Positions 31,401 to 37,400 of a stretch of 64,000 nt of DNA are shown one piece after another (the stretch's first letter is position 1; each line of letters begins with the position of its first letter). The notes under the pieces were generated by a model that saw nothing but the letters and a program-made list of their open reading frames with translations, was not told the DNA's origin and ran no database searches. The DNA comes from Rhynchobatus australiae (taxonomy: Eukaryota): positions 2,799,736 to 2,863,735 of the forward strand of contig JAUZTB010000082.1 of NCBI GenBank assembly GCA_034780895.1, given 5' to 3'. A program made the position numbers and the translations under genes.

Positions 31401-34400
31401 GTAGCTTACCAGGTCATTTAAGAGGGGCACTTGCGTCAACCACATTGGTGGATTTGGAGTCAAGTGTGGGTTGGTNNNNNNNNNNNNNNNNNNNNNNNNN
31501 NNNNNNNNNNNNNNNNNNNNNNNNNNNNNNNNNNNNNNNNNNNNNNNNNNNNNNNNNNNNNNNNNNNNNNNNNNNGTGGGTTGGTCCTGGTAAGGAAGGT
31601 AGATTTCCTCCCCTGAAGTATATTCACGGACAGGTTTTTTTTAAAATGACATTCTGCTAGTTTCTTGGTTTGTTACCGTGTTTCTTTTAAACTCCAGGTA
31701 ACCAAAATTAAATTCCACAGGTGCCATGATGGAATTTAAACTACGGTCTCTAGAGAGTCCAACTCTCCAGAAAGTCCACACTGTGTGGTAATTTAAGTGC
31801 TACACAGAACATAAATAATACAAAATTTTCCATCTCCTTCCCATTTAATCAAAAAGCTTCTACAAATACATCTGTAAAATTGTAAATTAATAACAGTCAT
31901 GTCTTTTTTCTTCTTTCTACAAAGTCCAAAAATGGCTCGTATATCATCTCCAGCACAATGTGGAGCTCAGTAACTTTGAACACACACTAATGATGATCAG
32001 CAAAAATGACAGTTCAGCTGTCTTTTTGTTTCACAAATCCACAACACAAATGAGCTAACTGGTGAAACTGTTTTATGCTTCTGCCAAAGTCTTTTAATTG
32101 GCTGATTTGTAAAAAGACTCTTGATGGTTCAAACCCAAAAACTAATCCACAAAATGTGTTCAGTTATTGTTAAGAAATTTAAGATTACTAGCTACTTGAA
32201 TTTGTTTTTGGCTTGGTTACAATTTGATGACAATACTTAATGTATTAAATGGTTTTTAAATAAAAATGCATTCCCGTAGACTATATTCACTTTAAGTCAT
32301 TCAACAGCAATTCTTTAAAAAAAGTACAACACTCAAATGCGAAATACATACATCACTCGCCAACTTCTCATAATCTTCCATAAGATGTTCATTCTCTTGA
32401 TTAACTGCCAGAACTTTGCAGATCCTATTGGCTGCAGTCTCAGCCTATCACAAACAGATACATGGTTAGAAGTGCCAGAACACAAAATTTGTGGAAAAAA
32501 TTATGCAAAGCTTAAAAAGAATCACAGATTTGTGGAGTTGTTAGGGCACTATATTAAAGTGTAGCTATTAAAGCTTTATAAAAATTACCCTTCAATTCCA
32601 AGAGCAAACAACCTATAGAGTGGCAATATTGCTTGAGATATGTAGAAGAGTTAATGTTCACAATGAACTTAGCTTAGATGAAACTCCAAAAAAAATGACA
32701 GTGTCATTTAAGCACAGATAGATTCAAGTGACAAAATGAGTGATTTGAAAATGGAAGTAAATAAACAGGGTTTAGCTGTAACTGAAGGACCAGATCTGCC
32801 CGAAAGGTTTCTGCCTCATCGAGGTCAAAGACCGGCAATTATGGATTCTGGCTACAGAAATACAAGCATGCATCATTATAACCAGTGTTACCTTAGAAAT
32901 GCCACACACCTGACCCACTTCTAACTAACATGAGCAACATGGTAGCATGCTAATGCAGCACTCAATTTAAACACAACCAGATCAAGATATTGAAGAAAAC
33001 ATGCCAATTGATGTTCTATTTCATCATAGATAACAAGACAAATTTATAATCCATCAGTACTGTACAAGATTCTACAAAGTGTAAAAGCAAGCTAGCATGC
33101 CATACTCTTGCACCAAGGATTATGCAGTGCAGCAGCTTCATTCTATATTTAAAGGATCAACTACTTCAGTTGTCAGTTCACTTTTTCAGACTGAATTAGC
33201 AAAGAATCACTAGCAGTTATTTAAACAGGATGGAGTCTTTCATTGTATAATTTTTGTTTACATCAGAAATCGTACATGCAGCAAATCAAACCACAACCTT
33301 TAATGACCAAGTTAAGGGAGAGAAGATCAAGTGGTGAGAGGGCATATTGTTCCAAAAAACACAAACTCTAAAAATGTCAGTGGCATACCATTCATGCCCA
33401 AGAGACAATAGGGAAAACCAAAAAAAAAAAAATCACAGAAAGGGGGAAGGTCTTTGTACCTGTTACACAGCAAAATAAAGAAAACAGTACACAGGTAGAA
33501 CAAAAGCAGCTGAGAGCTGGTCATCACTGATGGAAACTCAAAGGGTCTACACAGAGGGAAAAAAAAAGGACAGGAATGGTTGACAAGTTCAAGACTATTT
33601 TCTAATAAAGGAACAAAATTAAAATGTAAAGAAACCATTTTATACATTTACTGCCATCTTTAGAGTTGTTACCCCAAGACTGGAAATATGCACAGAATGA
33701 CTTGAATTATTTCTTAAAGACAGTGTTTTATGCTATAGACCAAAAGTACACCAGTGTAAAATCAAAATTTTAAGCTCATTTTAAAGTGATAGTTAAACAT
33801 CTACTCTTCAAGTTATTAAGAAACTGCTAATCCTCCACACAACTTTAATTAGTAGAAATTTATTGAAGACCATGAAAGAAGAAAGCAGGCCATCTGTATT
33901 CATGGTTATATCTCCTATCACTGCTGAACCACCATCCGAATTGCAAATTGTGTAAAAGATAGGATTAGAGAATATGTACCATTGTTATCCAATTTTAAAA
34001 ATAGCATTTACAAAGGAAATTCAGATTGTGAATAAAATAATTAATTATGCTATACGAGAAGAGTCAATGCTTCTTAACTAGTGAAAAACTTAATGGAAAT
34101 AGAATAAACTGTTGAAATCTGAATTCTTCCTTGCAACTCAGACTCATTTTCTTTCCAAAGCGCTGCTTTAAGAACATGCACAGCACTATGCCAGAATTCT
34201 ACTCCTCCTAACATCTTACCTTCTCTTCCAAAGCTGATCAAATTTAATAGTTCAATGTTTTAAGTCATTCATCTTCATTCATAAAAATGACCTTCAAATG
34301 TACTTCATAACTTTATTTCAACATCACACGATATAAAGACTAATATCTGAAATTCAGTTTTCTGGCATTAGTATGAATTGTAATCCTGAACATGGGAAAA

Positions 34401-37400
34401 TAAGTTTCCAAAAGTAAAGTCCAGATCCATGGTGAAAATTCAAATACTAGGAATCTAGTTGAAAGTTTGGAAATTAGGAACAAATAGTAGACTATATCAG
34501 CATTATCAATAAATTCTGATGTATTGCTGTACAGAGGGAAGGGACAAGGGTCAACCTGAGGTAGTCCATGTACTTTGATCTAAGTACTATTGCTTTAGAA
34601 CAGTTCATTTGCATACAAGAGCACACTTACTTATATGCATATTACACAACCTTAAAAGTGACACTTGTCACCCTATAGAAAATACATTTGTACAATATAT
34701 AAAGATACCAGATATTTACCACCTTACAATAGCAAACGAGCACCACAGAAGACCAAAAGCACACAGGAGGATAGAATATTTGCATGAGGCAAGAAGCTCA
34801 CCTTTTGAGCACCTGAGAAGGCATGGTAGTAGCATGAAACGTAAGTCATAATAGCCTTTTCATCTGGCCTGAGAGTGCCTACAATATCTGTGCAGAGAGA
34901 AAGTTAGCAGAGTAAGGTTGCATCATGCCACAAGCAGAAAAACAAGTACTATCATACGGTATGCAAGAGCACAGGTGCAGCATCATGCCTGGAACCAAGA
35001 AATTAAAAATCTGAAGGACAGCTGAAAGAGAAGCATGAGATCAGTGCTGCAGGAAGAAGTGGGTCCTTGATGACATGGTACCTTCTGTGCTCCTGAAAAG
35101 GCATGGTAGAAGCAGGAGACATAGGTCATAATAGCCTTCTCATCAGGGCGGGCAGTGTTCACAATGTCTGTGGGTAAACAAAAGTATTAGAAGCTTCTTG
35201 TCAACATCTGGCACATTATTAAATACTTGTGCACTTTTACCCATGGACCAACCAAATTCAAATGTACAATTTTACCATCGAGACATTTCAGTTTCATCAA
35301 ACACAAAAGCAATGCAGCACACTAACAACTTTCTACCTAGCGAGTCTATTTGGGCTACCCTGTGTTCTATAAAATTAATGAGAAATAGGTACATTTTTCC
35401 ACCACCACAGAAGTGCAACACCAATGAAAAATGAACAGATCACTGTTAGTCTGATTCTCAAACAGCACCGGCCAAGGGAAAAACTAGACTGCAGAATGGA
35501 AATTGATTGGCATCAAGAGCATTAATTTTTCAGAACACAGTTCTGTCAAAAAGAGTAATCCACGACTGTGTATCTAAATATAGATATCTATAAACATTGT
35601 GCAAATTATCTACCAATGTGCTCTCTACAGTCATTTCTACATTTTACAAAAATTAAAGGGAAATCTTCATTAAACAAGTTGTGTTTAATCTAACCTGTAA
35701 AGCCTCTAGTAGAATAGATCCAGGTCACATTCATGACAAAATTAGTTTAACAAAATGTGAAGGATTGTGCTGGTGCACAGAGCCATTAGTACATCAAAAA
35801 ATCTACTGACATTCATATCAGTAGCAAACCATCAAATAGATCCACATTAGGAATCATTTACAGAGAATAGTACAGCACAGTACAGGCCCTTGGCCCATGA
35901 TGTTGTGTCGACCTATATAAACACTTACTCCATGATCAATCTAACCCTTCCCTCCTACACAGCCCATAACCCTCCATTTTTCTTTTATCCTTGTACCTGG
36001 AAGTCTTTTAAATTTCCCTATTGCATCAGCCTCTACCACCACCCCAGCAGTGCATTCCAGGCACTCTTTACAAACCTACCTCTGACATCTCCCCTAAACT
36101 TTCCTCCTTTGACCTTAAACTGATGGGAGTTGGAGCAAAAATTCATGACATTTGTAAATACACGAAAAAAAAGGAAGATTTGCCCTGAAAATTCTGCAAT
36201 AAACTCCAAAACTGTTGTAGCACAGAGTGAATAGGCCAATTTAAGCAAAAATAGAAAATATTGGAAAGACTCAACAGGGTATCTGTGGAAGGTGGTCCAG
36301 GTCAAAGTGTTTCAGAATTATGCAAAAGAGAAAAGTTTTAAAAGTTGCAGACAAGTGGGGAAGGGATAGGTAGGGCAAAAGGATGAGGCCATGGGCATAA
36401 ATTATTGAAGTCACTCTGCCACCTTCTCTGCTTCCCCGTCCCAATTCTAACAAAGGGTTTCCAACCTGAAACGTTGACAATTTCTTTCCACAAATGTTGC
36501 CTGACCTGCTGATTACAGCATTTTGGTGTGTTTCTTAAAAAAAACTTCAGATTACCAACATTTACATATTTTTTTTTAAGATTTTCAGGTCCACAAGGCC
36601 ACGTCTCTCCCAAGTTCAAAGCAGAGTCATTTATAAACACATTTCAGCATAGTTNNNNNNNNNNNNNNNNNNNNNNNNNNNNNNNAGATGGAAAAAAAAA
36701 GGTAGAAAAAAAAATCAGTTAAAAATGTGGAAGTAAATATGCATTTCCTACAAAATCTCTAACCATACAATATTACACAAGAGTAAAACAGAAATGTATT
36801 ACATCAAAATCAAATAAGAGAATTAACCACATCTTTAAAAAGTAGTTTAACATCGATAAAACCCATTAGAGCATTAATTCCAATGAACTACAGTAACCAG
36901 CACCAAGAACACAGCTTTCCAGGCCTCGACATCCCAATCTCATTTCTCCTTTTATTCATCAGTCCTGTCTTGAGAGTTTCAAAACAGCTGTTCTTTACAT
37001 TTTTGCCTCATAGACAGAAAGATCCTAATAGTCCAGTGAGATCATTATTTGCAAATTTTGCCAATTAATGGGAAAATACGAATTATACACTTGGCTCTTA
37101 CAGCCACACCTGCACCAATTTCACTGAAAAGATTGGGCCTTCCTGCTGTGGGTTAAATATTCATTATTTTGGCAATATAGATGAAAGGAGGGTTTTTTAA
37201 CTGAAATAGGAAACTGTGGTTTGAAATTACAAGATGTTGGAATAGCAGAACATTAAGAAGGAAGTCAAGTCTAAGGAAAATAATATTAAGCACAACACCC
37301 GCTTTCAATATAAAAACACTTCCCAGAATTCTTACACTAAAAGGTCGTTTAATGCAAAGCCCCCCCCTAGCAGGGCCCTCTGCACCCCATGAGGTTACTA

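Follow-up and report, generated by a model that had tools for sequence, protein, structure and literature searches.

Twin exons 8a and 8b of an ACTN4-type actinin gene in Rhynchobatus australiae, and a probably incidental pairing among intronic elements around them

A 64,000-nt stretch of the Rhynchobatus australiae genome (contig JAUZTB010000082.1; hereafter the window) carries on its minus strand an alpha-actinin gene, of ACTN4 type by its exon 8 peptides, in which exon 8 is present in two versions, 8a and 8b. A preliminary description of the window had proposed that the choice between them is controlled by competing RNA structures, in which two similar intronic selectors (S1 and S2) pair with a single dock (D). 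Coordinates of the exons and of the intronic elements are given in Table 1. The names of actinin types used here are based in part on exon 8 peptides. Exons 8a and 8b lie in tandem at the end of the actin-binding domain, share 67 of 86 nt and have canonical splice sites, and an open frame with exons 7 and 9 is obtained from either. The intron between 8b and exon 9 measures 2357 nt.

The peptide identity to each human exon (28/29) upholds both the gene call and the exon pair of the preliminary description, and the pair is the ACTN4 mutually exclusive exon pair already known from human. Gene, position, 86-nt length, phase 1-0 and 28/29 peptides are shared with the human ACTN4/ACTN2 8a/8b exons (supplements of PMC5740500; bioRxiv 10.1101/2024.10.05.616792; PMC6912194). 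The human ACTN4 8a-8b intron differs in measuring 933 nt against 194 nt here (PMC5740500). In addition, the residues that distinguish the two variants are not those of human: at the position of a Ser in human ACTN4 8a both carry Cys, and it is the next residue that differs between 8a and 8b (Phe/Tyr). Given these residues, the functional difference between 8a and 8b may not equal the human one.

Table 1. Exons and intronic elements at the ACTN4-type locus, with positions in the window. Lettered organisms are relatives from the sequencing-run search described in the text.
Feature	Position	Strand	Description
Exon 8a, ACTN4-type	35082..35167	-	86 nt, AG/GT bounded; peptide 28/29 identical to human ACTN4 8a (PMC5740500 supplement)
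Intron 8a-8b	34888..35081	-	194 nt; strongly conserved in relatives; CUAAC at -20; two GCAUG motifs
Candidate selector 1 (S1)	34961..34973	-	13 nt, within the conserved 8a-8b intron, 108 nt past the 8a donor
Exon 8b, ACTN4-type	34802..34887	-	86 nt, AG/GT bounded; peptide 28/29 identical to human ACTN4 8b (PMC5740500 supplement)
Third UGUGCUYUUG element UGUGCUUUUG	34754..34763	-	38 nt past the 8b donor; within a piece conserved in organism H; weak dock pairing (-7.0)
Candidate selector 2 (S2)	34613..34625	-	13 nt, 176 nt past the 8b donor; 3' half forms one side of a local 10-bp hairpin (predicted); outside all aligned pieces in organisms H and I
Candidate dock (D)	33101..33113	-	13 nt, exon 9 follows after 656 nt; predicted to be part of a local hairpin; inside the unaligned gap 33011-33178 of organisms G and H
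Cluster of six GCAUG (Rbfox-type)	32867..33397	-	Densest kilobase of the window; four motifs within the segments 32835-33010 and 33179-33333, which align in organisms G and H
Exon 9, constitutive	32352..32444	-	93 nt

Steric exclusion had been rejected as the basis of the exclusivity, and we agree: it is ruled out because the intron between the exons is 194 nt long with CUAAC 20 nt before the 8b acceptor. The AG-free zone before that acceptor is only 63 nt, and the putative branch point does not lie within about 50 nt of the upstream donor. The preliminary description overlooked the length of the two exons. Since 86 is not a multiple of three, inclusion of both exons or of neither leads to an early stop. 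In a 7-8a-8b-9 message the third codon of 8b is a stop, and in a 7-9 message translation ends at the start of exon 9. Frame shift followed by decay would therefore already explain the apparent exclusivity of 8a and 8b. Human ACTN4 is marked 'Frame-shift' and '> 10 joining reads' in the supplement of PMC5740500, which indicates that the human spliceosome does join 8a to 8b. Among frame-shifting clusters only 83 of 377 have such joining reads (PMC5740500), placing human ACTN4 with the leaky ones. In human ACTN2, loss of QKI leads to skipping of exon 8, a stop in exon 9 and decay (PMC7782589).

The proposed elements are present on the minus (sense) strand where the preliminary description had placed them. 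S1 and S2 are identical at 12 of 13 positions, and each pairs over 13 nt with D, S1 with four and S2 with five G-U pairs; the single C/U difference between the selectors leaves the pairing intact either way. The extensions of the helices beyond 13 nt recur in our duplex models, and the distances were reproduced (the one to exon 9, given as about 660 nt, is 656 nt). Core duplex energies are -17.1 kcal/mol for S1:D and -15.1 kcal/mol for S2:D; with flanks they become -25.5 (14 bp) and -19.9, respectively. All three elements are single-copy by genome search. The layout is likewise as claimed: each variable exon has its own selector next to it, and both selectors are complementary to one dock in the same register. 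A downstream docking switch restricted to this lineage would work through these features: S1:D would loop out 8b and favour 8a, S2:D would shorten the 8b-9 intron and favour 8b, and the two helices could not form together. The geometry, the pairing, its indifference to the C/U difference and the single-copy state of the elements are consistent with such a switch. One detail of the selector repeats was wrong: besides S1 and S2 there is another element of this kind, UGUGCUUUUG, whose first letter is at 34763 (38 nt past the 8b donor). The pattern UGUGCUYUUG, drawn up post hoc from the matches themselves, has three sense-strand copies in the window, all within 350 nt around 8b, and none on the antisense strand. 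An Rfam scan gave one match (E 0.35), which lies outside the selector/dock feature and was disregarded.

We assessed the triad of S1, S2 and D against chance using as its score the weaker of two helices having at least 10 nt of dock in common. Control windows of the same size were real sense-strand sequence of three actinin loci; they overlap and include exons and repeats, and N-rich ones were skipped. The ungapped triad (-14.0) was matched at any position in 6 of 652 dinucleotide shuffles. Real windows matched it in 11 of 158 cases at any position and in 3 of 158 with near and near-identical selectors (10/157 and 2/157 without the triad itself). With 8-nt flanks (-19.9), it was equalled by 12 of 310 real windows, every one at a different site. 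Its parts are ordinary by themselves: shuffles matched the S1~S2 repeat in 63 of 300 cases and S1:D in 35 of 500, and real windows matched S1:D in 62 of 310. Overall, such a triad is found in 0.2-1% of shuffles and in 1-6% of real actinin-locus windows, and it falls at about the median once corrected for accessibility. The free choice among several geometries in the preliminary description probably raises the true chance rate further. The genome's own ACTN1-type locus (L003, about 7944, 7550 and 6675) has an 11-nt direct repeat upstream of 8a and of 8b, with the complement after 8b (-14.2). This second triad, of equal strength and other geometry, implies that such triads arise readily. As a sequence feature the pairing is real; at the level of the locus its chance rate is about 1-6%, and it is weak after accessibility correction.

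The accessibility correction reflects local folding. S1, S2 and D each lie in a predicted local hairpin, and opening costs 5-9 kcal/mol; these hairpins are no more stable than those of shuffles (z 0.56, -0.60 and 0.15). After correction S1:D is at -7.2 kcal/mol, which ranks it fifth of the helices joining the two introns; the value for S2:D is -4.6 kcal/mol. Another triad at the locus has a corrected value of -5.6, which 34 of 85 control windows reach or better, the control median being -4.4. A stem of about 21 imperfect pairs is also predicted between 34934-34913 and 34655-34631 (-23.6) and would enclose 8b and both its splice sites. One of its arms also belongs to the hairpin hiding S2. The 3' arm falls outside every aligned piece of organisms H and I, and the stem is retained as a lead.

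Conservation was followed in 24 sequencing runs carrying nine organism labels, none of them recorded as RNA, from which the contigs of four organisms (G, H, I and D) were aligned to 32300-35070. The aligned share of the spanned intron is 27% in organism G and 41% in organism H. The segment 34741-35055 has 95% identity in organism H, and 34795-35056 has 92% in organism I. The 8a-8b intron (34888-35081) and the first 60 nt past 8b (34741-34801) stand at 92-95% in both, against 82-84% in other aligned intron blocks. Judged by sequence, this conserved intron and the 60 nt after 8b are the strongest putative regulatory signal at the locus. S1 is conserved, and the whole surrounding intron is conserved alike.

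S2 has no aligned piece in organisms H and I, whose contigs extend 150 and 404 nt, respectively, past the aligned ends and so beyond where S2 would lie by collinearity; the bins covering 34532-34717 have zero depth. Nor was an aligned piece found for the dock in organisms G and H: one spanning contig aligns at 32835-33010 and 33179-33333 (82-84%), 159 unaligned letters replace 33011-33178, and depth is zero at 33044-33136. S1, S2 and the dock are all covered at about 94% in organism D, whose differences there fall among 198 rows beyond those listed. Of the three conserved islands anticipated in the preliminary description, S1 is thus found inside a wholly conserved intron, and S2 and the dock each lack an aligned piece in two species, with the proviso that islands below about 21 nt may be invisible. 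The alignments suggest, with moderate weight, that S2 and the dock are not conserved islands. Another long-range helix, in which 32922-32912 would pair with sequence immediately past the 8a donor through 11 Watson-Crick pairs (-26.7), was considered and rejected: 32914 is altered in organisms G and H without compensation in H, and the 5' arm is rewritten in organism I.

Three further actinin loci are present in the genome on other contigs. The ACTN1-type and ACTN2-type loci have two exon 8 copies each; the ACTN3-type locus has one copy in a gapped region, and a long open frame there was dismissed as a product of assembly gaps. In the ACTN1-type gene (L003 7769-7392, G000 C1) the 8a/8b pair is separated by a 204-nt intron that can be aligned to the ACTN4-type intron, and the two 8a-8b regions still align at 68% over 410 columns, exons included. 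Two ACTN1-type loci from other vertebrates, L026 and L028, have 8a/8b pairs with introns of 1377 and 1933 nt. At the ACTN2-type locus (L018 1540-2365, G000 C76) the order is inverted relative to the ACTN1 and ACTN4 types, with the 8b-like exon preceding the 8a-like one. The age of the exon pair, seen in the ACTN1, ACTN2 and ACTN4 types of this genome, and the alignable ACTN1 and ACTN4 regions are what an ancient docking/selector switch common to jawed-vertebrate actinins would predict. The elements themselves do not follow. The comparison with ACTN1 and ACTN2 suggested in the preliminary description revealed no comparable triad in the genome's own 8a/8b loci of these types, and S1 and S2 are not kept in the ACTN1-type 8a-8b region. 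The best triads score -12.0 (own ACTN1 type), -8.8 (own ACTN2 type), -12.1 (L026) and -9.3 (L028, locus incomplete), none with near-identical selectors of S1/S2 sequence. In L029, an ACTN4-type 8b locus from a different vertebrate, the 597 nt downstream contain no S2, the best match having 3 mismatches. With S1, S2 and the dock lacking counterparts in the paralogues, and with a human 8a-8b intron of 933 nt for which joining reads exist (PMC5740500), an ancient switch is highly improbable.

Two further matches were discarded, a selector-like 13-mer 424 nt past 8b in L028 and a match to UGUGCUUUUGG in L029, their local-alignment scores being equalled by 118 and 50 of 300 shuffles, respectively. 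A metagenome scan returned five stretches from four contigs, none with a full ACTN4 8a-9 region; one of the loci, L025, is a single-exon locus and was outside triad scoring.

The lineage-restricted switch can now be weighed. Its elements form a triad that is rare in shuffles, yet equal triads occur in 1-6% of real windows and the paralogues have none. S2:D is weak once the local hairpins are opened (-4.6), and S2 and the dock are absent from the aligned pieces. Furthermore, S2:D would loop out intron only, leaving about 850 nt, and would mask no splice site of 8a, which gives it no evident means of blocking that exon. We regard such a switch as unlikely. The statement that a docking/selector mechanism controls 8a and 8b is unsupported, two of the three elements being without conservation support and the accessibility-corrected energy being average.

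The reading we favour, and consider probable, is that proteins regulate the choice between 8a and 8b, that nonsense-mediated decay cleans up after it, and that the selector/dock triad is incidental. We take GCAUG to be a Rbfox-type binding motif, and UGCU/UGUG presumably represents MBNL/CELF-type binding motifs. Splicing proteins probably bind the conserved 8a-8b intron and these flanking motifs and would bias 8a against 8b by tissue. Transcripts with both exons or neither carry an early stop and, by analogy with human ACTN2 and ACTN4, would then be degraded by nonsense-mediated decay. Given the controls and the conservation, the 13-nt match would be a coincidence.

Several observations weigh against this reading. 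A triad with the second selector within 400 nt and at most one mismatch is matched by only 2 of 652 dinucleotide shuffles, and the flanked score of -19.9 is reached by only 1 of 500 shuffles. The dock is the top partner of both S1 and S2 in the 2357-nt intron, and by plain hybridisation energy the triad ranks first at the locus. The energies with flanks are in the range listed for human structures that have been validated (-15.8 to -35.9; PMC8052449, Table 1). Since the aligner reported no piece below 21 nt, conservation confined to a 13-nt core could have gone unseen. Competing structures are usually not conserved over long distances (PMC5740500), and weak conservation is therefore compatible with function. 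Finally, a fold of 32950-35200 does speak for this reading, with probabilities of 0.0 for both S1:D and S2:D and forcing costs of 11.7 and 14.8 kcal/mol, respectively, but long-range folds across 2 kb are unreliable.

The last kilobase before exon 9, which was picked after inspection, has six GCAUG motifs against 1.1 expected, and 2 of 252 windows reach six, both of them here. In the first aligned block of organism G, none of the 20 listed substitutions (of 23) falls in its three GCAUG motifs, as would happen by chance in 15% of cases. GCAUG is also found before exon 9 in ACTN1-type loci, with three in the last 470 nt of the genome's own 8b-9 intron (L003/L004) and five in the last 1240 nt in L026. 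This grouping may point to an old distal Rbfox element.

The position of the dock in this densest GCAUG kilobase, together with that of S1 in the conserved intron, fits a further explanation, in which S1:D alone would loop out 8b, bridge the distal GCAUG cluster to the region behind 8a, or both, as at ENAH exon 11a. Rbfox has a role in that RNA bridge. The ENAH structure is a long-range helix of similar span and energy adjoining distal GCAUG sites (Table 1 and text of PMC8052449), and the 1848-nt span here resembles its 1728 nt (-19.8; PMC8052449). The ENAH pairing is, however, conserved and validated (PMC8052449), whereas the distal arm here was not found conserved: the dock and neighbouring GCAUG lie inside the unaligned gap of organisms G and H. 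With S1:D also matched by shuffles and real windows at the rates given above, only fifth after accessibility correction, and tied to a GCAUG interval chosen by inspection, the single helix is quite unlikely. A more speculative idea, which we hold to be improbable, combines the two: one dock within the six-GCAUG cluster, 0.4-1 kb before exon 9, would pair behind 8a or behind 8b and deliver the same distal Rbfox enhancer to either. If true, such a competing RNA bridge would unite docking/selector and RNA-bridge mechanisms in one vertebrate gene and would explain a disease-linked actinin switch whose control the papers searched do not describe.

Downstream docking is the layout of 14-3-3zeta, Mhc and DNM1. 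As here, Drosophila 14-3-3zeta and Mhc, human DNM1 exons 10a/10b and CD55 have similar elements after each exon that are complementary to one downstream site (PMC11802352; PMC8052449, Table 1; PMC5740500). Unlike in those systems, the helices here contain four to five G-U pairs of 13, two of the three elements were not found conserved, and the arrangement is known from sequence alone. Human ATE1 exons 7a/7b are likewise a vertebrate exon pair with two similar intronic elements complementary to one partner, R1 and R4 competing for R3 (PMC7797038). The ATE1 layout differs in having the elements upstream of each exon and the common partner between the exons (PMC7797038). All ATE1 elements are conserved across vertebrates and compensatory mutants rescue (PMC7797038), and the nearest ATE1 helix listed has 17 nt and -33 kcal/mol.

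No RNA structure for actinin exon 8 is described in the literature found (including PMC5740500, PMC6071210, PMC9741552, PMC7782589, PMC7969005, PMC6912194, PMC8052449, PMC11802352, PMC7797038 and bioRxiv 10.1101/2024.10.05.616792 and 10.1101/2025.09.04.674271), with subscription journals mostly outside the search. ACTN4 is absent from five supplementary files of PMC8052449, and the genome-wide PCCR catalogue of that paper (Zenodo) could still list an ACTN4 pairing. ACTN4 exon 8b is reported as a marker of neuroendocrine lung tumours that alters cell migration, and a 2019 review calls ACTN4 splicing control hardly explored. A real docking switch, if true, would be one of few in vertebrates and a possible target of antisense oligonucleotides. 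As the evidence stands, more useful leads are offered by the GCAUG cluster and by the 194-nt intron with its conservation.

The intron before exon 9 also contains a candidate 87-nt poison exon at 33546-33460 on the minus strand, preceded by a pyrimidine tract with AG, followed by CAG/GUACAA, and giving an early stop in both frames tried. A 51-nt part of it, 33487-33537, is aligned in organism G and shows 6 differences there.

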